Virus record (IMG/VR): IMGVR_UViG_3300013126_000009
Direction: 5' to 3' (one strand)
From: a virus
Taxonomy: Duplodnaviria > Heunggongvirae > Uroviricota > Caudoviricetes
Length of the DNA stretch: 64,000 bases
Shown: positions 23,735 to 53,280 of the stretch, in pieces
Position numbering within the stretch: the stretch's first letter is position 1
Layout of the letters: every line of letters starts with the position of its first letter
The notes under the pieces: model-generated
Told to the model about the DNA's origin: nothing
The model's database searches: none
What the model saw: only the letters and a program-made list of their open reading frames with translations
Translations under genes and position numbers: made by a program

Positions 23735-26188
23735 TTATTTAACGAAGACTTTGTTGGTCTTTTTATCGTATGATATTTTAACTATTGAACCTTCTTTAAT
23801 ATTACCCATTAAAATTTCATCAGCGATAAGATTACCAATATGTACTTGTATTGCTCGATTTAAAGGTCTGGCACCATAAGCTTCATCATAACCTTCTTTA
23901 ACTAAGAAATCAATAGCTGCACTATCCAAAGTTATTTCATATCCTAAATCTGTTAGATTCTTTTTTAATTTTTCAATTTCAATACCGATTATTTTTTTGA
24001 TGTCGTCAACCTTTAATGAGTTAAAAATTATGGTATCATCAATACGGTTTAGAAATTCAGGTGAAAATTTCTTTTTTAATGCTTTTTGTATGATATTTCT
24101 ATCACGTTGTTCTTTACCAACAATGGTTGCATCAGTTTTAAAGCCAACACCAGTACCTAATGTCGACAGTTCTTTAACACCGACATTTGATGTTAAAATG
24201 ATTAAACAATTTTTGAAATCAACTTTGCGACCTAAACCATCAGTAAGTTGACCTTCATCCAATAGTTGAAGTAGTAGATTGAAAACATCCGTGTGGGCTT
24301 TTTCAATTTCATCGAATAATATAACACTATACGGTCTACGCCTAACTTTTTCAGTTAATTGACCACCTTGTTCATATCCAACATACCCTGGAGGTGCGCC
24401 CACCATTCTAGACACCGTATGTTTTTCCATATATTCTGACATATCCAACCTTATTAAAGAATCTTGGTCACCGAATAATTGTTCAGCAATTTTTTTAGCT
24501 AATTCTGTTTTACCTACACCTGAGGGTCCTAAGCATATAAAATTTCCTATCGGCTTACGTTTATCCTTTAAACCTAAACGATTCCTTTTAATCGCCTGTG
24601 TTATTTTATCAATAGCGTCATCTTGACCGATAATTGATTCTTTTAAGACCGAAGCCATATTTGCCAATCGCTTATTTTCCTGACCTGATATTTTATTAAG
24701 TGGTATTCCAGTCATTGTTGAAATTATTTCACAAATATTTTCAACATCAACTGTTGTTCGTTTTTTATCCAATTGTTGTTCCCACTTTAATTTTTCAGAT
24801 TCAAGTTTATTACTAAGTTTGTTTTCCTTATCTCTAAGTTCAGCAGCTTCTTCATATTTTTGTCTACTTACAACCAATAATTTTTGTTCAGCAAGTTTTT
24901 TCTTCTCTAATTCAAGTTTTTTAATTGAAGCAGGTTTTTCCTGTGATACATTTGTTGCGGCACCAGCTTCATCCAAAATATCAATTGCTTTATCAGGCAT
25001 TGACCTATCAGTAATATATCTATCGGACAATTTAACACATTCTTCGATGGCTTCGTCTGTGTAGGTTACTTTATGGTGATTCTCATATTTTTCTTTAAGG
25101 TTTTTTAGTATGGTTATTGTTTCGTCAACTGTTGGTTCGTTAATCAGTACCTGTTGGAATCTTCTCGTAAGTGCGCCATCCTTTTCAATGTGTTCGCGAT
25201 ATTCGTCAAGTGTTGTTGCACCAATAACTTGTAGTTCACCATTTGCCAATGCTGGTTTAAATATATTGGCGGCATCCAATGACCCACTAGCATTACCAGC
25301 ACCGACCATTGTATGTATTTCATCCATGAATAATATTATTTCTGGATTATTTTTCAATTCGTCTATTAAAGCTTTTAACCTTTCCTCAAACTGACCTCTG
25401 TATTTGGTTCCAGCAACCATTGACGCCATGTTTAATGAATAAATTTTCTTATCAGATAATATTCTAGGAGCGTCACCATCGACAATCATTTTAGCGATTC
25501 CTTCAACCACACTAGTCTTACCAACACCAGGGTCTCCAATCAAAATCGGATTGTTCTTTTTTCTCCTAGATAAGATTTGTGATACTCTTTTAATCTCATT
25601 ATCTCGACCAATTACTGGGTCAATTTCATCATTCTCAGCAGCAAGTGATACATTTCGACAGAAATTATTAATTACTGGTGTTGCATTTCTAGCAACTCGT
25701 TTTGGTTTTTTAGATTTATTATTATCTTCCATTGGTGTTTCATCAAAGCTTTCGGTACTCATTAGTGTATCTTTAAAGGTTTCATATGTTATTTTAAATT
25801 TATTCAATACTTTAGTTATTTTAAAGTCTTTAAAACTAAGTATTGATAGGAGTAAATGTGCTGTATCAACTTCAAAATCACCAACCAATTCAACTTCATC
25901 ATCAACGTGGTCAAATACGGTTTTAACTTCTTTGTTGAATGGTATCTTATCTGGTGTTTTAACTTTGGGTGTTAGGTTATTATTATGAACAATTTCATAT
26001 ACTGTATCATATAACGAATTAATATTAATACCCATAGATGATATAATATTCATGGCCCTATTTTCATTATCCATTATAGTGCTTAACAATATATGCTCTA
26101 AAGTTAAATGACTACCATTGGTGTTTACCACATCACTCAAAGCCTCTCGCATTATTTTTCTAACACTAGGTTTTACATTTTTACCCAT
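23735..26188 (-). CDS. clpC: ClpC-type AAA+ unfoldase
   Basis: Clp-[12 protein letters not shown]-like [30 protein letters not shown] ClpP-docking loop. Confidence 0.9.
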
Positions 26189-26947: not shown

Positions 26948-27132
26948 AAGCAAACAAGAAGTCACTGAATTGGTGCTGTTCATCGTATCAGCAACCGCTA
27001 TCACATTGTTCATGTTAATCGGTATGTTATGATTAATCGCAAAAAACAAAATAGAAATGAGACCATTGAATGGATTCTTTGGGTATTTTCAGTCGCAACA
27101 ATAATGTCACTTATGTTATTGAATTTCATATA

Positions 27133-27963
27133 ATGATTAAAGCTGACGACTATTATATAAAGAATCTTAAAAAGATACTATCAGAAGGGTCTTGGGATGA
27201 AAGTCCAAGACCTAAATATCCAGATGGAACGCCAGCACATTCTAAATTCATAACTGGTGTTTATGAAGAGTACGATTTATCAAAAAATGAATTCCCTATC
27301 CCAACTTTAAGGAATACCGCAATTAAGACTGGTATTAAGGAGATTTTATGGATATATCAGAAACAAACATCATCATTGGATGTTGCTAAGGAAATGGGTA
27401 TTAATTGGTGGAATGAATGGAATATTGGTAATAATACAATAGGTCAGCGATATGGTGCCACGGTATCAAAATATAAGCTAATCGATGACTTATTAACTGG
27501 TTTAATAAAAAATCCATTTTCTAGAAGACATATAATAAACTTGTATCAATACTCAGATTTATCTGAAACAGATGGTTTATACCCATGTGCGTATGAAGTA
27601 ATGTTTTCAGTTAGAAAAGGTCAAGACGGTTTAATTCTGGATATGACACTGATACAACGTAGTAATGATTATATAATGGCTGGGTATATCAATAAAATTC
27701 AATATACCGCACTACAAATGATGATTGCTGGACACTGTGGTTATGAGGTTGGTGTTTTTAGGCATCTGGTTCAGAACTTACATATCTATGACCGACATTT
27801 TGATGCGGTTGACGAATTATTGAATAAAGAACCGTTAGATTTACAACCTAAACTAACATTAGAAGCTAAAAAAGGTTTTTATGATTATTCAATAAATGAT
27901 TTTATTATTACAGGTATTGAGGGAATTGAAAAACTAAGTGGTAAATTAGAAATTGCAATATGA
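27133..27963 (+). CDS. thyA: Thymidylate synthase
   Basis: GQRYG, SRRHI, LYPC, QRSND, NLHIYDRH; start likely ATG 27133. Confidence 0.92.
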   Translation: MIKADDYYIKNLKKILSEGSWDESPRPKYPDGTPAHSKFITGVYEEYDLSKNEFPIPTLRNTAIKTGIKEILWIYQKQTSSLDVAKEMGINWWNEWNIGNNTIGQRYGATVSKYKLIDDLLTGLIKNPFSRRHIINLYQYSDLSETDGLYPCAYEVMFSVRKGQDGLILDMTLIQRSNDYIMAGYINKIQYTALQMMIAGHCGYEVGVFRHLVQNLHIYDRHFDAVDELLNKEPLDLQPKLTLEAKKGFYDYSINDFIITGIEGIEKLSGKLEIAI

Positions 27964-28214
27964 TTAAATTAACAACTGATAGTAAAGTTGAATATCCAAC
28001 AACGTACAATGTGTTATGGGAAAACGGAAAACATTTAGGTTACTTTAGGTTAGATGTCGATGGTTACTATTATTTTGAGGAACTACCTAATGGTGGTTAT
28101 TGGTCAGCACATTCGTTAAGACATATTGCCGATAAATTGGACGAAATTAACAAACCATATGATGATGAAGTAAATCAATATTTCGATAATTTAAAGAAAA
28201 ATGGAGAAGATTGA
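27960..28214 (+). CDS. Hypothetical protein
   Basis: DVDGYYY...WSAHSLRHIADKLDEINKP. Confidence 0.65.
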   Translation: MIKLTTDSKVEYPTTYNVLWENGKHLGYFRLDVDGYYYFEELPNGGYWSAHSLRHIADKLDEINKPYDDEVNQYFDNLKKNGED

Positions 28215-28316
28215 TTTAGACGTTGATAACCGAATGTTACGAATCGGTTTTGGAAAGCATAATGGAAATTGGTTCTTTAGGGTTGATTTGTGGTTTGTTG
28301 GTTATAGATTTAAACC

Positions 28317-28505
28317 ATGAACACACTACAGATAATTGATGAACATATAATCATTAGGGAAACTGTTGGTTATGATTTTTTAAAGGATATTTCTGTTGAA
28401 GATTTGCCCACAGTTATTGAGTTTCTTCGAGTTGTCGATAATTATAATAGAATGACAAAAAAACTAAAAGAAATAGAATGTTCAAATCCTTCTCAGAAAT
28501 CCTAA
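28317..28505 (+). CDS. Hypothetical protein
   Basis: Fits operon. Confidence 0.5.
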   Translation: MNTLQIIDEHIIIRETVGYDFLKDISVEDLPTVIEFLRVVDNYNRMTKKLKEIECSNPSQKS

Positions 28506-28858
28506 AACAATTTACGACAGGCCAAAGAGTCTTTGTGTTAGTGCTACTATTAATGTTTTCGTCTGGTAGTTACATTATAACGAATTACCTTAAGACTGAT
28601 GATTGCAGACCTTTAATCGAAGAAAATTTAAAGTTACAAAGTGACTTTATTAAAATTTCAGAACTTATTCGTGAACGTGAAATGAGCAAACACGTTAGTG
28701 AGGCACATATGGAATCAGGTGATGCGTTAATGTCAACAACCAGTTACGATACGATATATGTTGTTCGAGATGAGCCATCATCTGATGATGTTGTATTGGA
28801 AGAAATATTAGATATAGCAACGCAACATTGTGACGATGAAAGCAATATTAGCAATTAA
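28478..28858 (+). CDS. Single-TM coiled-coil protein
   Basis: N-terminal hydrophobic helix. Confidence 0.6.
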   Translation: MFKSFSEILKQFTTGQRVFVLVLLLMFSSGSYIITNYLKTDDCRPLIEENLKLQSDFIKISELIREREMSKHVSEAHMESGDALMSTTSYDTIYVVRDEPSSDDVVLEEILDIATQHCDDESNISN

Positions 28859-29219
28859 TAATCAAAATTACATTGGTTTAAATGGTGAACTACCATGGAA
28901 GTCATCAAGAGACCTTAAGCATTTTAAGGAAATGACCAATGGTTGTAAGCTTTTGGTTGGTTATAATACAGCACTTAAGCTACCTAAACTATCTAATCGT
29001 GAACTTATTGTCGACCCAAGAAATGAATTGTACCCAGTAACTGATGATATGTGGTGCATCGGTGGTAAAAAAACATACGAAAAATACGCACATTTAATTA
29101 AAGAGTTACATATATCACATATTAACGATGATACAATTGGTGACGTTAAAGCGCCAGACCTATGGTCAATGATGAAAGCACCATCTAAGGTCCACCATTA
29201 TTATTTTGATGTGGATTAA
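28836..29219 (+). CDS. folA: Dihydrofolate reductase
   Basis: IGLNGELPW, DLKHFK, GYNT, LSNR, IGG. Confidence 0.88.
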   Translation: MKAILAINNQNYIGLNGELPWKSSRDLKHFKEMTNGCKLLVGYNTALKLPKLSNRELIVDPRNELYPVTDDMWCIGGKKTYEKYAHLIKELHISHINDDTIGDVKAPDLWSMMKAPSKVHHYYFDVD

Positions 29220-29304
29220 TCTTGTGAAAAAAATTAATCAGACATAACTAATAACTATTCACTTTAATATGTTATTTGATATTTATTATTGATAAAAAAT
29301 ATAT

Positions 29305-29697
29305 ATGTTTATACCTAATCACTTGCATGTCCTAATAAAAGGACATTTTTTAAATCCTCCTACTGAGGTTGAAATATTGAATCAATGGTTCATTGATTTG
29401 GTTAATAAGGTAAGAATGAAAGTTGTTGCTGGACCAACCAGTGTATACGTTAATGAGGAAGGTAATGAAGGGTTGACTGGTACGGTAACTCTAGCTACTA
29501 GTCATGCGAGTATTCATATTTGGGATTCGATATCACCAGCAATGTTTCAATTTGATTTATATTCATGTTCGCATTTTGATGTTGATGAAGTTTTAAACCA
29601 TTTAGACGTATTTCAATTAACAGATGTCGAGTGGGTTTTAATTGACCGAAATGAAAAGCTTTTAGTCGTTGATAAGAATGTTAGACGATACATCTAA
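29305..29697 (+). CDS. speD: S-adenosylmethionine decarboxylase-like pyruvoyl proenzyme
   Basis: GLTG...LATSHASIHIW...DLYSC. Confidence 0.8.
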   Translation: MFIPNHLHVLIKGHFLNPPTEVEILNQWFIDLVNKVRMKVVAGPTSVYVNEEGNEGLTGTVTLATSHASIHIWDSISPAMFQFDLYSCSHFDVDEVLNHLDVFQLTDVEWVLIDRNEKLLVVDKNVRRYI

Positions 29698-29995
29698 TCG
29701 ATTTCATATTGTTTCATGGTTATTAAAAGACATGTTTTGGTGTCTAAAGTTCAGTACTATGGCTATCGTCATGATAGTTCCGACAATTTTGATTAGTATA
29801 TATGTTTTAATTAAACATAAAGCTGAAAGATTAGAAAACGCCATATTAACATCATGGATATCTATGAATATATTTTGGATGTTGCATGAACTAATTGGTA
29901 CATCTTTTATTTTGGTCTATCCACCAATGATTATTGGAGTATTACTGATTATTTTTTTGATGTGGAGGAATTTTCGTCTTTATTTGCATATTTGA
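29678..29995 (+). CDS. Multi-pass membrane protein
   Basis: 3-4 hydrophobic helices; H..SWLLKD..W. Confidence 0.6.
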   Translation: MLDDTSNRFHIVSWLLKDMFWCLKFSTMAIVMIVPTILISIYVLIKHKAERLENAILTSWISMNIFWMLHELIGTSFILVYPPMIIGVLLIIFLMWRNFRLYLHI

Positions 29996-30518
29996 CGCCC
30001 ATTATTGTACCAACAATTGAAAAGGCATTTGTTAATAGGATTCCTAATAGATTTGACCATGTTGAACCTATTATTTGTGTTTCTCGATTTATTACAATTG
30101 CGAATATATAAAGTAATGTTGTTACTATACCAATACCGATAATTACAAATAACGCACCATTTACGATGTTATTAATCATTTCATATTGGTTTTTCTTCTG
30201 TAAGATATCCAAATCGTCCTCAACCGCTTTTTTAGCCTTATGAACATCATCCAAGGATTCTAACAATTCTTTATTAATTCGTTCTATTTCGTCTTTGGCA
30301 TTCTGTAGTTCTTTATTCTGTTCTTGAACCTTTTTGGTTATTTCAAGTCTTTTTTTACGAGTTTCGGTATCTTTTGTTTTACAATCATTAAGATAACTTT
30401 CAAACTCTGAATCACCATCAGTATCGATAATTTTCAATATATTACCTTCAAGGGTAATGTTATGAGTTTTATAGATATCTAAAAGAACAATCTTAGTATC
30501 TTCACTTAATTTGACCAT
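29949..30518 (-). CDS. Coiled-coil protein with two C-terminal TM helices (third gene of the TCS operon)
   Basis: Start overlaps the response-regulator stop. Confidence 0.7.
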   Translation of the reverse strand: MVKLSEDTKIVLLDIYKTHNITLEGNILKIIDTDGDSEFESYLNDCKTKDTETRKKRLEITKKVQEQNKELQNAKDEIERINKELLESLDDVHKAKKAVEDDLDILQKKNQYEMINNIVNGALFVIIGIGIVTTLLYIFAIVINRETQIIGSTWSNLLGILLTNAFSIVGTIMGVKYANKDENSSTSKK

Positions 30519-30949
30519 TATTTATAAACTTTAAATTGTAGTGTTCTGTTCTTATACCCCGCAAAATCTTTTCTAAATTCCTCCAATCTTGGCTCAATCT
30601 CATCAGATTTTATAATCCAGAATTGGGCACCAGCCTTTAATGCTTTTGCTTGTTCCTCAGCTTCATCAGATGAAGAAATTATGCCACACACTACTTCATC
30701 ACCATATTCGAAATTTAATTTACGTATTAACTCTATACCATCAAAAGCTGAACCTATGATATTTAAATCAACAAAAATACATTCAGGTTTTGGTATTTCT
30801 TTATTGAACCATTTCTTAAACAATTCTTCAGCATCTTCAGAGCTTGACAGTGTTGTTAAATTTAATGTTATATCTAACAAACTACAAGCGTCTTCAAATA
30901 CTAAATGAAATAAATTTTCATCATCAACTAACAATATCGATTCTATCAT
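30518..30949 (-). CDS. Single-domain response regulator (receiver)
   Basis: LLVDD, FVDLN (phosphoacceptor), ISSS, IIKS. Confidence 0.88.
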   Translation of the reverse strand: MIESILLVDDENLFHLVFEDACSLLDITLNLTTLSSSEDAEELFKKWFNKEIPKPECIFVDLNIIGSAFDGIELIRKLNFEYGDEVVCGIISSSDEAEEQAKALKAGAQFWIIKSDEIEPRLEEFRKDFAGYKNRTLQFKVYK

Positions 30950-32178
30950 ATTTTTATTTTTATTTTTGAACCACCGTTTTCACTTAAACCACATTCAATA
31001 TCAAAACTATGTTCTTTTATTATAGCTATACAGATATTAAGCCCTAAACCTGTACCTTTTTCTTTATTATTGTTATTTCTAATATATGGTTTAGAATATT
31101 CTTCAAATTGTTCCTGTGTCATACCCCTACCATTATCTTCAATAACAATTGTCCTATCATTTTCTTTATAAATACGAACAATTTTGGACTTACTATCATT
31201 ATATTTCAAACCATTTCTAATTAGATTGTCAATTGCAGTACATATTAAAGCTTCGTTAGCATTTATAACCCCTAACTCACTAATATCAACTTGACTTGCA
31301 TAGGCTGTACTTTTTAAATAAGTCTTTAACACTTCGTCTAATACTATCGGTTTTTTTTCTAGAATGGCATCTTTTTTAACTAAGTTCGTGAACTCTTTAA
31401 CACCAGCATAAACTTTTTGTGCATGTGATAAACCTTCTTCTAATAATTTAAGGGGCGCCTCAATTTTAAGTTCTTTGATTTTATCATCCGTTAATCTTCT
31501 TTTTAATGAATTAAGACCTCTAGGAATGTATGTATTTATACCTGAATGCATATCATGTCTTAATATTTTAGCGGCATGCTCTAAATAAGAATTATTTTTC
31601 TCAATTTCTTGTTGTTGTTTGATTAACTCAGTTATATCATGTCTAACTGAGATATAACCAGTTAACTTACCATTTTGGTCAAACTCAGCTTTAATCCATG
31701 AATCAACAATATATTCATTACCGTTTTTACCCTTATTTATCACAACTTCATTCCATATTGATTTGTACTTAACGGTGGCAATATACATTTGTGTCCAGAA
31801 TTCTTTTGTTTGTTTACCAGAATTTAATACTGAATGGTCTTTACCTAATAACTCGTGGGCTTTATAACCAGAAACTTCACAAAATTTATCATTAACATAG
31901 ATTATTTTACCTTTATTATCAGCTTTTGATATCAATGCAGAATCATTTAATAACGCTTCTGTCGATTTTCGGTTAGCTTTACCCTCTTTGATTATGTCGA
32001 TTAATTCTTTTGTTATTATGAAGAAAGGTAATATAAAGAATATTAAACTTAAATATTCATACCACTCAATCATCTTAGTATGTTCCATGTAATCAAATAA
32101 AACAACCGTTTTGACTATTAAAAAACATAACATAATCAAGGTCGCTATAATACCACTTATTAAAATCTTTAATTTCAT
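30946..32178 (-). CDS. Membrane-anchored PAS-domain histidine kinase
   Basis: 2 TM; PAS (IIYVNDKFCEVSGY..ELLG); H-box LRHD; N-box NLIRNGLKY; DNGRG; GTGLGL. Confidence 0.9.
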   Translation of the reverse strand: MKLKILISGIIATLIMLCFLIVKTVVLFDYMEHTKMIEWYEYLSLIFFILPFFIITKELIDIIKEGKANRKSTEALLNDSALISKADNKGKIIYVNDKFCEVSGYKAHELLGKDHSVLNSGKQTKEFWTQMYIATVKYKSIWNEVVINKGKNGNEYIVDSWIKAEFDQNGKLTGYISVRHDITELIKQQQEIEKNNSYLEHAAKILRHDMHSGINTYIPRGLNSLKRRLTDDKIKELKIEAPLKLLEEGLSHAQKVYAGVKEFTNLVKKDAILEKKPIVLDEVLKTYLKSTAYASQVDISELGVINANEALICTAIDNLIRNGLKYNDSKSKIVRIYKENDRTIVIEDNGRGMTQEQFEEYSKPYIRNNNNKEKGTGLGLNICIAIIKEHSFDIECGLSENGGSKIKIKI

Positions 32179-32273
32179 AATATTTAAATATCTAGATTAT
32201 ACTCTTAAATCCCTTATTTATTACTTTTTTATCTTTTTAAATCTATTTATTAAATGATAAAAGAATTATAATT

Positions 32274-32714
32274 ATGTCAAGTTTCGATGGTTACTTTCCA
32301 ATTATACACACAGCAAGTGGTGCAACACCAGAATGTTATATATATCTTAAAGTATATGGTGGTACTGGTGGTGGTTCGGCAATAATAAATAATTTACCAA
32401 TTAATATCGGTGCTGGTAGCACAATAGACATTACTGTTAAATCAATTACTGGTGTAACTGGTAATGTATATCTTTTAGGTATGAAAAAGAACGTACTTGA
32501 AGGTAGTAATACGTTGGGTGGTTATGGTGACCAAATACCAAACCCAATTACTGGGAAATATGTAGTTACCCCTTGTCGAACAATAGTATTTAATGGTGAT
32601 TTGATTGTAACTGGTACTTTAGAAATAAAACCTAATAGTACCCTCATTATAAATGGTTCATTGACCGATAATGGAACAGTTATAAATAACGGAACAATAA
32701 TAATAAACCCATAA
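32274..32714 (+). CDS. Gly/Thr-rich putative virion protein with beta-helix-like tail
   Basis: Paralog of 33550-33810 with a C-terminal extension. Confidence 0.6.
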   Translation: MSSFDGYFPIIHTASGATPECYIYLKVYGGTGGGSAIINNLPINIGAGSTIDITVKSITGVTGNVYLLGMKKNVLEGSNTLGGYGDQIPNPITGKYVVTPCRTIVFNGDLIVTGTLEIKPNSTLIINGSLTDNGTVINNGTIIINP

Positions 32715-33549: not shown

Positions 33550-33810
33550 ATGTCAAGTTTCCACGGTTATTTCCCAATAATGCACCCAGCAAGTGGGTCC
33601 ACACTAAGCGCATTTACTTATTTACAAGTATATGGTGGTACTAGTGGTGGTACAGCAACCTTAAATGGTACACCAGTTAATATAGCAGCTGGAAGTACTA
33701 TTGATTTGGTGGTTAAAACCATAAGTGGTATCAGTGGTGATATCTATCTATTAGGTATGCGAAAGAACGTATTGGTGGGTAGTGGAGTATTAGGCGGATA
33801 TGGCGGATAA
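33550..33810 (+). CDS. Gly/Thr-rich putative virion protein
   Basis: MSSFHGYFPIMHPASG; ATATTTAT at 33520. Confidence 0.65.
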   Translation: MSSFHGYFPIMHPASGSTLSAFTYLQVYGGTSGGTATLNGTPVNIAAGSTIDLVVKTISGISGDIYLLGMRKNVLVGSGVLGGYGG

Positions 33811-42067: not shown

Positions 42068-43873
42068 ATGTTAACAGCATCTGAAATATTAAAAGAGTAT
42101 ACAAATTGTGTATTAGACCCTATATACACGATTGAAACTTATTTTAAAACTTTTGATAAGACCAATAATGGTTTCGTACCTTTTTATCTTTTTGAAAAAC
42201 AAAAAGAGATTGTTGAATCTTACGAAAAATATCGTTTTAACCTTGTAGCTAAACCAAGACAAGCTGGTGTATCAACAACAACTGCCGCATATTTGGCGGT
42301 TAAAGTTGCGTTTGCTGATAAAGATAACCCAGAAGCGATACTTATTGTCGCAAACAAACAAGACATGGCGTTTGAGTTCTTATCAAAGATAAAGGACTTC
42401 TTAAATCAAATACCAAGATGGGCATGGGGTAGCGATTATTATGGTACACCAGAAAAAGAAAGAAAATCAATTTTTATTGCCGACTCCAAGAAAGAAATTA
42501 AACTACCGAATGGTTGTAGAGTAAAAGCTGTTGCAACATCTAAAGATGCTTTACGTGGTTATACGCCAACATATCTTATTATGGATGAAGCAGCGTTCAT
42601 TGAGGATGGTAAAGAATTATTCGGTGCAGCTCTGACCGCTTTGGGAACTGGAGGTCATGCAACACTTATATCAACACCAAATGGACAAGACCCGTTATAT
42701 TATGAAACCTATGATATGGCGATAAAGAAAAAGAATAATTTCAATATAATTGAAATGCGTTGGTATCAAGATAATCGATATAATAAAGACCTTAAATGGT
42801 ATAAATATAAAGATAAAGAAAAGACACAAAAAGAGGAAATAAAAGAGGTTGAATTTACCTTTGAATCATATGAGCGTTTTATAAAAGACGGTTATAAACC
42901 GACATCCTCTTGGTATGAGGAGATGTGTAGGGGCATGAACAATGACGCTAGAATGATTGCACAGGAATTGGATGTGTCGTTCTTAGGTTCTGGTGGTAAC
43001 GTTGTTGCTGATGAGTATATACAACACCATAAATTAAATAATGTACAACAACCAAAATACGTTAGTGGTGAAGATAATGAATTATGGATATGGGAAGACC
43101 CAATTGATGGTCATGAGTATATATTAGCTTCTGATGTTTCTCGTGGTGATGGTGAAGACTCATCAACGTTTGTTATTGTTGATTTTACAACAATGACGCA
43201 AGTTGTTGAGTTTCAAGGTAAAGTACCGCCAGACAAATTAGCCGATATCTTATATGAATATGGTATGTTATATGATGCGTTATTGGTTGTTGATATAACT
43301 GGTGGTATGGGTGTTGCAACAGTATTAAAATTACAAGAAATGAAATACCCAAACCTTTATTATGACGATAAAGGTAAAGCATTGAAACAAAGAAAGGATG
43401 TGGGTAAATACGATACTAAAAAAGAAACTGCTGGATTTCAAGTTGGTAGTGATAGGACTCGTTTAGTTGCTCATTTTGAAAAAATGGTTAGAATCAATAG
43501 GGATGAGGGGTTAGACCATGGAATCAAAATACGTTCTGAACGGTTAATATCCGAATTAAATACGTTTGTATATATTAATGGTAGAGCTGACCATTCTAAA
43601 GGTAAACATGACGATATTATTATGGCAATGGCGATGGCTTTATTTGTTTTAGAATACTCATTCAAACAACTAAAACAATTGAAAAGTAAGGCAAAAAGTA
43701 TGCTAGCCAGTTGGGTGGTTAATTCTGGAAATAAAGCTGTTAATGTTCAACGTGAACTTACAGTACCAAGTGGTAAACCAGCACCGAAAAAACCTAACTT
43801 CAACCCAAACGTATCTAAAAACATGCAAGACCCACAAGGTCAATATATGTGGCTTTTCTCTGGTTATCGATAA
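42068..43873 (+). CDS. terL: Terminase large subunit (T4 gp17-like)
   Basis: KPRQAGVST Walker A, LIMDEAAF, ISTPNG, DVSRG nuclease, HDDIIMA. Confidence 0.93.
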   Translation: MLTASEILKEYTNCVLDPIYTIETYFKTFDKTNNGFVPFYLFEKQKEIVESYEKYRFNLVAKPRQAGVSTTTAAYLAVKVAFADKDNPEAILIVANKQDMAFEFLSKIKDFLNQIPRWAWGSDYYGTPEKERKSIFIADSKKEIKLPNGCRVKAVATSKDALRGYTPTYLIMDEAAFIEDGKELFGAALTALGTGGHATLISTPNGQDPLYYETYDMAIKKKNNFNIIEMRWYQDNRYNKDLKWYKYKDKEKTQKEEIKEVEFTFESYERFIKDGYKPTSSWYEEMCRGMNNDARMIAQELDVSFLGSGGNVVADEYIQHHKLNNVQQPKYVSGEDNELWIWEDPIDGHEYILASDVSRGDGEDSSTFVIVDFTTMTQVVEFQGKVPPDKLADILYEYGMLYDALLVVDITGGMGVATVLKLQEMKYPNLYYDDKGKALKQRKDVGKYDTKKETAGFQVGSDRTRLVAHFEKMVRINRDEGLDHGIKIRSERLISELNTFVYINGRADHSKGKHDDIIMAMAMALFVLEYSFKQLKQLKSKAKSMLASWVVNSGNKAVNVQRELTVPSGKPAPKKPNFNPNVSKNMQDPQGQYMWLFSGYR

Positions 43874-44182: not shown

Positions 44183-47100
44183 ATGGCAAATAATAAAACA
44201 ATATTTCAAACGCTTACCAATATGTTCGGACCTTATGGTGTCGAACCAGAAAGGGTCAGTAAAAAATATTCATTAGGTAATTCTGAATTATTAAGGACTA
44301 CCTCAAAAGAAGAGTATGAAACTCAGAAATTACAAGCAAGACAAAATAAGTATTTAAGTAATCAATGGGTTAAGGTTGAAAACGAGATATTTCAAAAATC
44401 AATTCAATATGAGATAACTAGAATAGGTGCATACTCCGATTTTGAAAATATGGAGTTTTACCCTGAAATTGCAGCAACTTTAGATATTCTTATGGAGGAA
44501 TCCACAACGGTTAACGATATTGGTAGGGTTTTAAATATATATTCTGAAAGTCCTAGAGTTAAGGGTATTTTGGAAGACCTTTTCTTCAATCGATTGGATG
44601 TTCATGTTTCTTTACCTATGTGGATAAGAAACATGTGTAAATATGGTGATAATTTCTTATATCTCAATACTGATGATAAGAGAGGTGTAACTGGTGTTAA
44701 ACAATTACCTAATTTTGAAATTGAGCGTAGAGAAGGTGGTATTTATGATGTTGTTAGTGCAAACTTAAATGGTGTTGAAAGGGGTAGTAATAAAGATGAT
44801 AAAGTAAAGTTTTTCTGGAGGGGTCGAGATTTAGAGTTTATGAATTGGCAAGTTGCACATTTTAGACTATTAGGTGATGACAGAAGATTACCATATGGCA
44901 CGTGTTTAAAAGGTGATACTAGAATTAATACCGAATTCGGTGTCGAGGAAATTAAGGACATTAAGGTCGGAACCAAAGTTTGGTCATTTAACACTAAAAC
45001 GCAAGAAAAAGAGTTGTCACCAATTTTAGATAAAATAATGTCTGGTACTAAAGAAGTATTTAAAATTTCAACAAGACATAATTTTATTGATGCTAGTAAA
45101 GAGCATAAAATTTTAGTTGCTACTGAATTTGGTGAATTTATCTATAAAAATGTTTGTGATTTAAAAATTGGGGATTTACTGGTATTAAATAAAAATGAGC
45201 ATACCAACAAAACGATATTAATTGATAAAAGTAACCCACTTGAAAATAAAAATGGGTGGTTTAATAACATTAATCACATACCAGATATTGTTACTGAAGA
45301 ATTTGCACAATTATTTGGTTTTTTAATTGGTGACGGTTGGTTAACGTCAAATAATTCTTGTGTTGAATTTGCTTTAGGTACTGACTCGGAAACCAATAAT
45401 TTTTATATTTCATTGTTAGAAAAGTTTTCTGGACATAAAGTTGTGGTGGGGGATAAACAAGTGACATTACGTTCTAAATTATTAAAAACTATTTTAGAAA
45501 GAATGGGGTTTTTTGGTAAATCCCATGAAAAAAGAATACCTAGTTGGGTGTTTGAAATGGGGGTTGATTTACAAAAAGCGTTTGTCGCTGGATTAATGGA
45601 CGCTGATGGTTGGGCAACTAAAGACCAATGGGTTATTGGGTTACATATTGAATTAAATAATAAACCATTAATTGAAGATTTAAAAATATTATTACAAAGA
45701 ATTGGTTACAAATCAGGCTCGATTAGAAGTCGAGTTAGGAAAGAGCCGATTATTGAGGGTAGGCAGATAAAAAATGTTAAAGAAAGCCACATAATCACAT
45801 TTTTTGATTCATATTTAACACAAATGAAAAAATATGAATTTAAAAATAGAAAAACTGATAATTTTATTTTAGAACCAATACAGAGTATTGAATCAATCGG
45901 TAATCATAATACATATGATATATATGTTGAGAACAGTAACCATAATTTTTATGCAAATAATGTTGTTGTACATAACTCAATCTTGGAAAAGGCTAGGCGT
46001 ATCTGGAAACAACTTCTTCTTTCAGAAGATGCGATGTTAGTGTATCGTGTTACTAGAGCACCAGAGAGACGTGTTTTTAAAGTTTATGTAGGTAACATTG
46101 ACGATGAAGATGTTCAACCATACGTTAATGAAATTGCTAATAGATTTAAACGTGCCAGTATAATTGACCCAAAAACAGGACAAATTGATTTGCGTTATAA
46201 CCAATTGGCAAATGACCAAGATTATTTTATTCCTGTTAGAGAAGAGGGTGCGGCAACACCTATTGATACTTTACCAGGCGCGTCAAATTTGTCAGATATC
46301 GCAGATATTGAGTACCTCCAGCGCAAATTATTTACGGCATTACGTGTACCAAAAGCCTTTTTGGGTTTTGACGAACCAAAAGGCGAGGGTAAGAATCTAG
46401 CGTTGTTAGATATTCGTTTTGCAAGAACAATAAATAGAATTCAACAAGCAGTTTTACAAGAACTTAATAAAATAGCTATTATACATTTAGTTTTATCTGG
46501 TTTAGAAGACGAAATAGATAATTTCACAATTACTATGAATAATCCGTCAACACAATCAGAGATGTTACGGATTCAAAATCTTCAAACAAAGGTTACTTTG
46601 GTTAAGGACGCTACTTCGGATATTGGTAATGGTTTCAGTGTAATGTCATTAACTAAAGCTAGAAGAAGTATTCTTGGTTGGAGTGATGAGGAATCTAAAC
46701 AGGATTTCCTTGAACAGCGTATGGAAAAAGCTGCTTCAGCTGAATTGGAAAACACGGCTAACGTAATTAAACACACTGGTATTTTTGATAAAGTTGATAA
46801 ACTTTATGGTGATATTGAAGTTGCAAAACAAGGTGGTGCAGCACCTGAAGGTGGCGATGAAGCTGGTGGTCCATCAGGTGGTGGTGGCGGTGGCTTCGGT
46901 GGTGGCGGCCTAGGTGGTGGTGACATCGACTTTGGTGCTGGTGATTTGGGCGAATTCGGTGAAGCTGAAGGTGAAACTCCTGAAGCTGGTGGTGAAACTC
47001 CTGAAGCTGGTGGTGAAATCCCTGAAGCTGGTGGTGAAACTCCTGAAGCTGGTGGTGAAACCCCTGAAGCTGGTGGTGGTGAAATTGCTGAAAACTTGGA

Positions 47101-47341
47101 TAAGATAAGTAATTTATTGACTGAGAGGGCTGAATTGTTGACCAATGACCTTAGAGCTAAGACTAAAAAATATCAAACAAATTATTATAATAGGTTGGTT
47201 GAATCTTTGGATACCAATAGTCTTGAACAAAAAATATTAAATAACAAGGTTAAGGTTTTTGATAAAGGTTTAAAACTAAATGAGGAAATTGATTCAGTTT
47301 TAAGGGAAATTGATAAACTTTCAACTGACAAAGGTGAATAA
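44183..47341 (+). CDS. Portal protein (T4 gp20-like) with intein
   Basis: YGT|SILEKARR, EDAMLVYRVTRAPERRVF, IDTLPG, ALRVPK. Confidence 0.92.
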   Translation: MANNKTIFQTLTNMFGPYGVEPERVSKKYSLGNSELLRTTSKEEYETQKLQARQNKYLSNQWVKVENEIFQKSIQYEITRIGAYSDFENMEFYPEIAATLDILMEESTTVNDIGRVLNIYSESPRVKGILEDLFFNRLDVHVSLPMWIRNMCKYGDNFLYLNTDDKRGVTGVKQLPNFEIERREGGIYDVVSANLNGVERGSNKDDKVKFFWRGRDLEFMNWQVAHFRLLGDDRRLPYGTCLKGDTRINTEFGVEEIKDIKVGTKVWSFNTKTQEKELSPILDKIMSGTKEVFKISTRHNFIDASKEHKILVATEFGEFIYKNVCDLKIGDLLVLNKNEHTNKTILIDKSNPLENKNGWFNNINHIPDIVTEEFAQLFGFLIGDGWLTSNNSCVEFALGTDSETNNFYISLLEKFSGHKVVVGDKQVTLRSKLLKTILERMGFFGKSHEKRIPSWVFEMGVDLQKAFVAGLMDADGWATKDQWVIGLHIELNNKPLIEDLKILLQRIGYKSGSIRSRVRKEPIIEGRQIKNVKESHIITFFDSYLTQMKKYEFKNRKTDNFILEPIQSIESIGNHNTYDIYVENSNHNFYANNVVVHNSILEKARRIWKQLLLSEDAMLVYRVTRAPERRVFKVYVGNIDDEDVQPYVNEIANRFKRASIIDPKTGQIDLRYNQLANDQDYFIPVREEGAATPIDTLPGASNLSDIADIEYLQRKLFTALRVPKAFLGFDEPKGEGKNLALLDIRFARTINRIQQAVLQELNKIAIIHLVLSGLEDEIDNFTITMNNPSTQSEMLRIQNLQTKVTLVKDATSDIGNGFSVMSLTKARRSILGWSDEESKQDFLEQRMEKAASAELENTANVIKHTGIFDKVDKLYGDIEVAKQGGAAPEGGDEAGGPSGGGGGGFGGGGLGGGDIDFGAGDLGEFGEAEGETPEAGGETPEAGGEIPEAGGETPEAGGETPEAGGGEIAENLDKISNLLTERAELLTNDLRAKTKKYQTNYYNRLVESLDTNSLEQKILNNKVKVFDKGLKLNEEIDSVLREIDKLSTDKGE
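44903..45976 (+). mobile_element. Intein with LAGLIDADG homing endonuclease (358 aa)
   Basis: CLKGDT start, VVHN|S end, LFGFLIGDG and FVAGLMDADG motifs. Confidence 0.92.
46970..47074 (+). repeat. 5 x 21-bp tandem repeat (GE[T/I]PEAG) in the portal C-terminus
   Basis: ggtgaaactcctgaagctggt repeated. Confidence 0.9.
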
Positions 47342-51477: not shown

Positions 51478-53280
51478 ATGTCACACTTATTAAACTCTGG
51501 TTCAGTTGGAAATATCGGACTTAACCACATGAAAGAAGTAAGGAAAAAAGTACAAGAAAAGTGGGATTCTACAGGCTTCCTTACTGGTCTTCAAGGACAC
51601 ATTAAAGAAAACGTTGCTCAGTTATTCGAAAACCAAGCTGGTAGCTTGTTGACCGAAAACACTGATGCTACTTCTTCAGGTTCTTTTGAAACAGTAGTAT
51701 TCCCAATCGTAAGAAGAGTATTCTCTAAACTTCTTGCAAATGATATCGTATCAGTACAAGCAATGAACTTGCCAATCGGTAAATTGTTCTTCTTTGTACC
51801 TGTTACATCTTCTAGAGTAGACGCATCTGGTGCTGCTGGTGACCCTTATGGTTCTGTACCATATAACGGTTCTTACTCAGCACATACTGGAATGACTCAA
51901 CTACCTGATTGTGTGGTGAATGGTGCTTCTTGCCCATCTACTAGCTTTTTAGCTAAAAACCTTTATGATTTATTCTACAACGATGGTTTGTTTGATAACT
52001 CAAAGGGTACCTTAACTATTAAGTCATTTACTGGTGCTACTCAAGTTACTAAAGTCGCTTTGGGCGCTAACGGTGAGTTTAGTGTAATCGCTCCAGCGGC
52101 TACTTTAGCAACAGCAACTGATGGTTCTGTACGTGAAGTTATTTTACGTGTATCAGGATTTAGCTCAACAAATAAAGGTCGTTTAACTGGTCCAGATGGT
52201 AATACTATGGATACTGAGTCTTTCTTGGCCTCATTAATGGTATTTAACGCTGGTTCAGCAATACTTGACGCTAATGGTGATGAAATTATCCCGAATTTGG
52301 GTAAAGTACCATTTAGGGTTGTAACTCAAAAATACGGAAAGGGTATTGTTGAATATGATGACATCTGTGACAGTGCTGGTCACATCTATTTAGGTGCTGA
52401 CCTTACTCATCCAGTTGATATCAATGCTGCTACGACAACTTTCGATGGTTACATCGGTATGTCAGCCACAACTGCTAGTGCAACAACATTTGCTGTAGCA
52501 TGGGCTGAGTACGCAAGCCTTGAGTTCGAAACTGAAATGGGTGAAGTTTCTTTCAGACTTGACGATGTTGTTGTGTCTGTAGAAGAAAGAAAATTGAGAG
52601 CTACTTGGTCTCCAGAATTGGCACAAGATGTTAGTGCATTCCACAACATCGATGCTGAAGCTGAATTGACAGCGTTGCTTTCTGAGCAAATTGCATCTGA
52701 AATTGACCGTGAAATCCTTAGAGATTTGAGAAGTCTTGGTGCATGGCAAATGAGATGGGACTATTACGGATGGAGAAAAGCGTCTAGCGCATCTAACGCT
52801 TACACCCAGAAGGATTGGAACCAAACTTTGATTACCAAAGTTAACCAAATCTCAGCTCAAATCCATAAGTCAACACTTAGAGGTGGTGCTAACTTCATCG
52901 TAGTATCTTCAGAGATTTCTGCAATCTTCGATGACCTTGAGTACTTCCACGTAAGTGATGCTTCTCCAGAGCAAGACCAATACAACATGGGTATTGAAAG
53001 AATCGGTTCATTGGGAGGACGTTATCAAGTATACCGTGACCCATATGCACCAGCATACTCAATGATTATCGGTCACAAAGGAAAGTCATTGTTGGATACA
53101 GGTTACATCTACGCACCATACGTGCCAATGCAACTTACCCCAACTATGTACAATCCATTCAACTTCGCTCCAGTGAAGGGAATTATGACACGGTATGCGA
53201 AGAAAAGCGTGAATAACCGCTTCTACGGACATGTTCGTGTAGATGGTGTTCCAACATTCAACGTAGCTGAATTGAGATAA
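51478..53280 (+). CDS. Major capsid protein (T4 gp23-like)
   Basis: LFENQ, VSVQAM, RKLRATWSPELAQD, YAPYVP, GIMTRY. Confidence 0.95.
   Translation: MSHLLNSGSVGNIGLNHMKEVRKKVQEKWDSTGFLTGLQGHIKENVAQLFENQAGSLLTENTDATSSGSFETVVFPIVRRVFSKLLANDIVSVQAMNLPIGKLFFFVPVTSSRVDASGAAGDPYGSVPYNGSYSAHTGMTQLPDCVVNGASCPSTSFLAKNLYDLFYNDGLFDNSKGTLTIKSFTGATQVTKVALGANGEFSVIAPAATLATATDGSVREVILRVSGFSSTNKGRLTGPDGNTMDTESFLASLMVFNAGSAILDANGDEIIPNLGKVPFRVVTQKYGKGIVEYDDICDSAGHIYLGADLTHPVDINAATTTFDGYIGMSATTASATTFAVAWAEYASLEFETEMGEVSFRLDDVVVSVEERKLRATWSPELAQDVSAFHNIDAEAELTALLSEQIASEIDREILRDLRSLGAWQMRWDYYGWRKASSASNAYTQKDWNQTLITKVNQISAQIHKSTLRGGANFIVVSSEISAIFDDLEYFHVSDASPEQDQYNMGIERIGSLGGRYQVYRDPYAPAYSMIIGHKGKSLLDTGYIYAPYVPMQLTPTMYNPFNFAPVKGIMTRYAKKSVNNRFYGHVRVDGVPTFNVAELR

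Follow-up and report, generated by a model that had tools for sequence, protein, structure and literature searches.

A virus-restricted kinase–receiver–membrane hairpin module of uncultured aquatic phages and its possible role in lysis control

Why would a phage carry a complete histidine kinase and receiver with no DNA-binding domain attached? The question is raised by a 64-kb fragment of DNA from a large, uncultured lake phage of the Caudoviricetes (IMG/VR record IMGVR_UViG_3300013126_000009; this whole stretch, of 31% GC, is called the window below), the minus strand of which encodes, back to back, a sensor kinase, a stand-alone receiver and a coiled-coil membrane protein ending in a two-helix hairpin. 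Judged by sequence comparison, this trio is a real, intact, virus-restricted, strongly conserved and phage-owned module. Our best explanation of the whole, to which we give a probability of about 0.5, is a phage-owned two-component relay acting post-translationally on a holin- or antiholin-like hairpin. That the module is a relay onto a membrane hairpin seems reasonably probable; that its role is lysis control is an evenly balanced call. The three genes are as follows.

30946–32178, minus strand: kinase gene, 410 aa, with a two-transmembrane (2-TM) anchor, a PAS domain, a DHp domain and a catalytic ATPase domain
30518–30949, minus strand: receiver gene, 143 aa, stand-alone, acidic (net charge −13), with a conserved 20-aa C-terminal tail
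29949–30518, minus strand: membrane (hairpin) protein gene, 189 aa, with an N-domain, a coiled coil and a 2-TM hairpin

The initial annotation, made from the sequence letters, had described three translationally coupled genes with intact catalytic motifs. This was borne out: the kinase stop and receiver start share ATGA, the receiver stop and hairpin-gene start share TAATG, and the predicted catalytic residues are invariant in relatives.

A conserved, virus-restricted trio

The same annotation had allowed that the triad might be a recent host-derived fragment not conserved in phages, and had proposed comparing phages with cells; the comparison places the module firmly among viruses. At least 587 IMG/VR stretches encode relatives of the kinase at 50–64% identity, on contigs of up to 320 kb (at least 599 stretches were found), and the gene order kinase–receiver–hairpin was kept in 76 of the 82 loci checked first. 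In three large relatives the receiver is 74–75% identical while the terminase is only 42–53% identical, and in two more distant genomes terminase identity is 33–35%. A profile of the hairpin protein recovered only 264 cluster representatives among 1.84 billion proteins, and its ESM Atlas clusters are 100% viral. Across 185,579 species genomes it matched only eight contigs of metagenome-assembled genomes (MAGs), from scattered phyla. Four of these matches are full-length, and their contigs bear the whole trio; the remaining four hairpin forms, either short or fused to PAS, mostly have an endolysin as neighbor. We read all eight as phage contigs binned into MAGs. GenBank phages yielded no homolog of the hairpin protein and no relative of the module in protein and DNA searches, including a DNA-level search with the trio region, and full-text literature searches turned up no account of the trio.

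Kinase and receiver domains are of ordinary bacterial types, as would be expected had a host operon recently been captured as a moron with no phage-specific role. We nevertheless consider such an origin highly improbable, given that no cellular homolog of the hairpin protein was found beyond the eight MAG contigs, that hundreds of viral contigs with terminases only 33–53% identical retain the module, that a phage-type promoter motif precedes it, and that its GC content is that of the phage window. Two elements lie upstream of the kinase gene.

32184–32191, minus strand: ATATTTAA, a phage promoter-like motif, with 5 nt between motif end and kinase ATG
32196–32201, minus strand: TATAAT hexamer lacking a corresponding −35, located 23 nt upstream of the kinase ATG

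A late-like motif 5 nt before the start had been noted initially, and ATATTTAA stands at exactly that spacing. Its family is enriched upstream of window genes: ATATTTA[AT] precedes 13 of 42, terminase and head-module genes among them, against about 0.8 expected by chance (estimated from overall density). From which genes carry the motif upstream, the ATATTTAA family would be a 'late' promoter. A motif of the ATATTTA[AT] type also precedes the kinase gene in 22 of 58 relatives, at −12 to −14 or −22 to −25, often directly after a terminator hairpin; because of this recurrence, the trio is, as far as motif comparison tells, an autonomous unit under a phage-specific promoter. A scan of positions 29400–32500 for sigma-70 promoters and terminators found no full sigma-70 promoter at the TATAAT hexamer, and its sites did not exceed shuffled or chance expectation.

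From sensor kinase to membrane hairpin

Within the three proteins, the following features were assigned.

31990–32169, minus strand: kinase membrane anchor, aa 4–63; by hydropathy two TM helices, a loop of ~12 residues and no periplasmic domain
31618–31956, minus strand: PAS domain, aa 75–187, of MmoS/Aer/NifL type, which binds flavin adenine dinucleotide (FAD), assigned from PDB matches and pocket residues
31555–31557, minus strand: codon of H208, the predicted phospho-accepting His (RHDMHSG, invariant in 68 kinase cores)
30949–31281, minus strand: catalytic ATP-binding domain, aa 300–410 (HATPase_c, PF02518, 1.2e-14), with N-box region, DNGRG and GLGL conserved among relatives
30767–30769, minus strand: codon of receiver D61, the predicted phospho-accepting Asp, an invariant column
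30411–30518, minus strand: N-domain of the hairpin protein, aa 1–36, with motif LEGNILK; also fused to HisKA–HATPase_c in P0122, P0135 and P0143
30168–30410, minus strand: basic patch (RKKRLEITK) and coiled coil, aa 37–117; helical in the AlphaFold 2 model, with length changes by whole heptads
29988–30167, minus strand: two-helix membrane hairpin, aa 118–177; TM2 (WSN..ILLTN.FSI.GTIMG.KY) nearly invariant

The invariance around H208 extends to RHDMHSGINTY across the 68 C-terminal cores, those of a second kinase paralog (below) included. The sensor domain, which also matched Pfam PAS_9 (2.2e-11), had been likened initially to flavin-binding Aer/NifL-type domains, and that comparison is upheld: its closest PDB matches are MmoS PAS-A (3EWK, 6.9e-27), Aer (8DIK, 8.3e-14) and NifL (2GJ3, 1.7e-9), all FAD-PAS redox sensors, and the best NCBIfam match is NifL. 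In the PDB-match alignment, kinase S80, H115, N148 and R179 fall on Aer T18, H53, N85 and R115, the flavin-pocket residues common to Aer and MmoS (PMC9668731), and of 96 distinct PAS copies from relatives, 92 retain the H-N-R set. Given this kinship and the retained pocket residues, flavin (FAD) binding by the kinase PAS is likely. Where Aer has RHPDMP the trio PAS has NSGKQTK, resembling NSGYHGK of MmoS, and its cofactor is putative. As in Aer, a 2-TM anchor comes without a periplasmic domain; unlike in Aer, the output is a DHp–CA kinase core, a lone receiver and a viral hairpin protein. Against PADLOC defense-system models, the kinase gave only a marginal ATPase-fold match (MzaB, 0.0033), and the receiver, the hairpin protein and a GAF–hairpin fusion described below gave none.

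The regulator had been said to lack a DNA-binding domain, and Pfam indeed assigns the receiver Response_reg only (PF00072, 2.5e-8, above the cut-off), with no output domain. Residues D9, D10, D61, S92–94 and K114 are invariant among relatives. It is the most conserved member of the trio (62–77% identity to relatives vs. 40–56% for the hairpin protein), acidic across relatives (net −7 to −18) and otherwise very divergent, its best natural PDB match being 3ILH (3.8e-7). Since the receiver has no DNA-binding domain, control by the trio would have to be protein–protein. In two relatives, one of 321 kb (100% complete) and the other of 291 kb (97% complete), the trio receiver itself is the sole PF00072 match, and neither thus has a DNA-binding regulator that could relay the signal. 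Like CheY, Spo0F, DivK and CpdR, the receiver stands alone with its D-D-D-S/T-K set intact, and like them it is predicted from sequence to act through partner binding; it differs from them in its conserved 20-aa tail, in having no CheA or Hpt partner and in the overlap of its gene with the hairpin gene, which measures 1 or 4 nt in 70 of 78 loci. Kinase–receiver hybrids of the trio family also occur (P0167–P0169, 377–580 aa, one on a 190-kb contig), as real fusions or as read-through of the ATGA junction.

For the hairpin protein, to which Pfam assigns no family, an AlphaFold model (predicted local distance difference test, pLDDT, 84) and hydropathy delimit the N-domain, a continuous helix from residue 37 to 142 that runs through the coiled coil into TM1, a five-residue turn and TM2 (aa 148–182), which bears a small/polar stripe (G159-T163-S167-G170-G174). 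The distance from RLEITK to TM2 (WSN..ILLTN) is 90 + 7n residues (90, 97, 104, 111, 118, 125, 132 or 139) in 96 of 98 distinct sequences, with 97 residues in the window; the two exceptions, at 98, apparently have one extra residue in the periplasmic loop. Coil length is free and heptad phase fixed, a pattern that fits mechanical coupling of the tip to the membrane hairpin. Fixed heptad phase is also seen in chemoreceptor and signaling-helix coiled coils. The patch around RLEITK is basic (net +2 to +6 among relatives), which, set beside the acidic receiver, gives a weak hint of a putative docking site. Measured against holin traits, the protein has two TM helices, a short tail (KYANKDENSSTSKK, net +2) and a cytoplasmic N-terminal part of 117 aa, the last of which is atypical.

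Among relatives it is the sensor parts that differ; receiver and hairpin are constant and remain coupled in translation. Besides the 2TM-PAS arrangement of the window, we found 2TM-GAF-PAS, 2TM-PAS-PAS, GAF-PAS-PAS and soluble PAS-PAS kinases; the anchor is present in the membrane-anchored variants, and a 297-aa variant consists of anchor and DHp–CA only. In about one third of the loci, extra same-strand genes lie between kinase and receiver, the commonest insertion being a secreted protein of ~200 aa plus a second kinase (L020, L024, L039, L047, L049, L059, L074, L077, L122, L150). In this second kinase, a periplasmic part of ~200 aa stands between a signal or TM segment and a further TM segment. 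Because its DHp helix 1 is identical (RHDMHSGINTY), both kinases should serve one receiver, with the second as a possible envelope or periplasm input. Other translationally coupled genes in the same gap encode YceI (L034, L063), a patatin-like phospholipase (L046, L051) and a GIY-YIG endonuclease (L077:3324-4046); a phospholipase within a putative lysis-control operon is itself notable.

Profile searches further revealed proteins in which a sensor is joined directly to the output. The coil-hairpin is fused to GAF (P0030) or to one or two PAS domains (P0054, P0049), and these GAF and PAS domains are homologous to those that serve as sensors in the kinase variants. Two complete GAF-fusion phage genomes (160 and 182 kb) contained no match to the receiver protein, and a PF00072 search of the 160-kb genome returned nothing, the same search being positive in three trio-bearing genomes. 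In the soluble kinases P0122, P0135 and P0143, the N-domain and the start of the coil are instead fused to a HisKA–HATPase_c core; these come from ENA, Logan and NCBI contigs of up to 100 kb, had no close copies in IMG/VR or JGI metagenome scans, and found only generic kinase matches among GenBank phages. As far as fusions can tell, the N-domain acts as an exchangeable input module and the coil-hairpin as an exchangeable output module; of the in-silico arguments for signaling from the receiver to the hairpin protein, this is the strongest. The initial annotation had reasoned that output must be protein–protein, plausibly to the third gene product; the near-universal receiver–hairpin coupling and the fusions bypassing kinase and receiver both speak for this route, and the contact itself is a prediction.

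Some of these data could also be accommodated if the hairpin protein were an accessory sensor component that modulates or anchors the kinase (cf. LiaF, MzrA, SafA), leaving the receiver to target another host or phage protein, for example as a protease adaptor (CpdR, RssB) or at the flagellar motor (CheY). The conserved kinase anchor, in one variant the only input, makes a membrane partner plausible; in NCBIfam the receiver weakly resembles RssB (3e-5, well short of the cut-off), a Clp-type ATPase is encoded in the window (23735–26188), and a receiver more conserved than both neighbors fits several partners. We nonetheless regard this arrangement as decidedly unlikely. Sensor–hairpin fusions occur in complete genomes with no kinase or receiver homolog nearby and no receiver match genome-wide, so the hairpin there works as an output and not as a kinase accessory, and kinases without a predicted membrane segment (e.g., L113) still pair with receiver and hairpin genes.

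Endolysin linkage, lysis control and known systems

If the output is a membrane hairpin, what might it act on? Clustering of the neighbors in 111 non-redundant loci gave as the commonest family a PG_binding_1 plus Glyco_hydro_19 (GH19) protein, present in 58 loci, which matches endolysin phrog_181 at 2e-62; a T4-type lysozyme occurs in 14 further loci. Of 126 non-redundant loci with the hairpin gene, 69 have one or the other endolysin no more than 4 kb away, 68 of these no more than 2 kb away and 17 no more than 100 bp away. The linked endolysin may stand upstream or downstream and on either strand, typical orders being kinase–receiver–hairpin–endolysin and endolysin–kinase–receiver–hairpin, and the two families are unrelated. 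By a rough estimate, a single endolysin would fall within 4 kb by chance in a ~200-kb genome near 5% of the time. Six receiver-less variants (GAF/PAS fusions and short forms) likewise adjoin an endolysin, and L166 has the order small TM protein, hairpin, GH19, holin-like protein. A neighbor family, h140, has weak holin matches (phrog_199, 5.5e-4; TIGR01593, 0.0038). The lysis-timing role suggested initially thus gains from endolysin linkage in about half of the relatives and loses from the window itself, where neither linked endolysin type occurs.

Several observations weigh against a relay that controls lysis. The Pfam HisKA model had no match in the kinase at E < 0.1; the H-box motif being kept, we regard its DHp as divergent. 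When longer forms of the receiver were sought, the kinase–receiver hybrids alone came up, with no receiver–hairpin fusion among them. Hairpin proteins with an intact N-domain occur in L121 and L126, and no receiver or kinase was found on these contigs, which are of 74 and 178 kb and 14–74% complete. (The hairpin gene there is preceded by two conserved uncharacterized genes of 297 and 427 aa; those ahead of the L121 copy had no Pfam or PDB match.) The hairpin protein matched no holin family in Pfam, PHROGs or NCBIfam, and fold searches with its model returned nothing from the PDB and only a homolog from BFVD, and so no known fold. As for linkage, where at least 4 kb of sequence is available on each side (41 loci), an endolysin comes within that distance in only 18; one relative has its endolysin 58 kb from the trio; the window, 64 kb long, contains no member of the GH19, T4-lysozyme or small holin-like families seen in relatives; and the linkage may in part be a matter of inherited gene order. 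Finally, 27 of 126 loci also contain small candidates for a canonical holin, and for this reason the hairpin protein may regulate a holin rather than be the hole-former.

Much of this would also be expected of a membrane effector unrelated to lysis timing, acting in superinfection exclusion, controlled depolarization, host takeover or envelope protection, with endolysin proximity reflecting shared late expression or inherited synteny. Besides the missing holin family and the roughly half of loci, window included, with no endolysin nearby, such an effector would suit neighbors that also include Hsp70, metallophosphatase, YceI and patatin genes. It would not explain as readily why endolysins of two unrelated families directly adjoin the module in several arrangements, why independent one-component variants show the same linkage, or why the linkage so exceeds the chance estimate of near 5%, and we hold it to be unlikely, if worth keeping in view.

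On the lysis-control reading, the relay would run as follows. The kinase, anchored by two helices, would read the cytoplasm through its Aer/MmoS-type PAS, probably FAD-bound, and report redox or respiratory state. Its intact motifs predict autophosphorylation on H208 and transfer of the phosphate to receiver D61. The phosphorylated receiver, acidic and without an output domain, may then bind the cytoplasmic N-domain or the basic patch of the co-translated hairpin protein, whose rigid, heptad-phased coiled coil would couple receiver binding to the packing or oligomerization of the two-helix membrane hairpin. Judging by gene linkage, the hairpin would contribute to lysis as a holin, an antiholin or a holin modulator. 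The time of host burst would follow host state, earlier and later lysis both being possible. In relatives, a second kinase with a periplasmic domain would feed the same receiver, and in other phages the sensor is joined to the hairpin without intermediates. Extended to all relatives, the proposal becomes more tentative: a large clade of uncultured aquatic jumbo phages may time lysis by its own His–Asp phosphorelay, in which interchangeable sensors (flavin PAS, GAF, periplasmic kinase) converge on one receiver that, once phosphorylated, grips the tip of a heptad-phased coiled-coil rod and thereby switches the hairpin, which gates or blocks hole formation.

Burst size and phage fitness are set by when lysis occurs, and to our knowledge the only well-understood sensory control of this timing is lysis inhibition in the T-even phages and ICP1. 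In T4, RIII is a cytoplasmic regulator that acts on the cytoplasmic N-terminal part of holin T. The trio is closest in logic to T4 lysis inhibition and ICP1 TeaA/ArrA, and closest in theme to LytSR with LrgAB/CidAB; searches of PHROGs and by fold, and comparison with LytSR systems, gave no sequence or fold homology to any of these. T4 lysis inhibition involves holin T and the antiholins RI (periplasmic) and RIII (cytoplasmic), and ICP1 has TeaA/ArrA (PMC11413866, PMC7182436). As in these phages, sensing of a condition during infection would alter the time of lysis at the post-translational level, by way of a protein that attaches to a lysis protein of the membrane, which for the trio is our proposal, and the periplasm-sensing kinase added by some relatives recalls RI. 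Unlike in T4 and ICP1, the signal would pass by His–Asp phosphotransfer from PAS or GAF sensors and would be host redox or ligand state, not superinfection, and the membrane protein ends in a 2-TM hairpin carried on a coiled coil of fixed heptad phase.

LytSR controls the holin/antiholin-like LrgAB/CidAB in Firmicutes; LytR binds DNA, and the control is transcriptional and cellular. The pairing of LytSR with LrgAB/CidAB is exemplified by S. mutans (PMC3507848). Both there and, by prediction, here a two-component system is paired with holin-like membrane proteins and tied to cell energy or oxygen state; the trio differs in being viral, in a receiver without a DNA-binding (LytTR) domain and in a kinase with a 2-TM anchor and PAS in place of 5TM-Lyt. 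If our reading holds, the trio would be the first two-component system to control a holin-type protein post-translationally and would form a signal-integrating counterpart of T4 lysis inhibition, one in which host energy state is read: phages would compute the moment of lysis from host physiology, and two-component signaling would gain a new membrane output that is non-transcriptional. The sensor–receiver–hairpin module is compact, and its parts have already been swapped in nature. Being abundant in lakes and lagoons, it may shape the viral lysis of aquatic bacteria.

Genomic setting and likely host

Other genes of the window, some of them referred to above, are listed here.

42068–43873: large terminase gene
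44183–47341: portal gene
51478–53280: major head protein gene
23735–26188: Clp-type ATPase gene

The terminase is only ~28% identical to those of T4-like cyanophages. The trio forms an inverted island, with thyA, DHFR and AdoMet-decarboxylase genes on one side and uncharacterized plus-strand genes on the other. The former, encoding thymidylate synthase, DHFR and an S-adenosylmethionine decarboxylase-like protein, stand in a row at 27070–29697 (+) and are nucleotide/polyamine auxiliary genes. Between them and the trio lies a convergent 108-aa open reading frame (29669–29995, +) with ~3 predicted TM helices, which shares 47 nt with the 3′ end of the hairpin gene; it had no Pfam or PHROG match and is not conserved beside the trio in relatives. 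On the other side, the genes at 32274–32714 and 33550–33810 (+) are paralogs without assigned family, with near-identical N-termini (MSSF.GYFPI.H.ASG...), each preceded by an identical 20-nt stretch, GATAAAAGAATTATAATT plus ATG.

A Shine–Dalgarno core (GGAG, GAGG or AGGA) is absent from the 20 nt upstream of all 44 window genes checked, and these leaders are 52% A, vs. 34% overall. Signal peptides of the accessory secreted proteins in relatives end in SQ or AQ. We take these three features together to indicate a Bacteroidota-like host. DNA near-identical to positions 29900–32330 is present in lake, freshwater and lagoon metagenomes from several studies, dated 2020 to 2025, which argues that this phage or its close kin persists in such waters.

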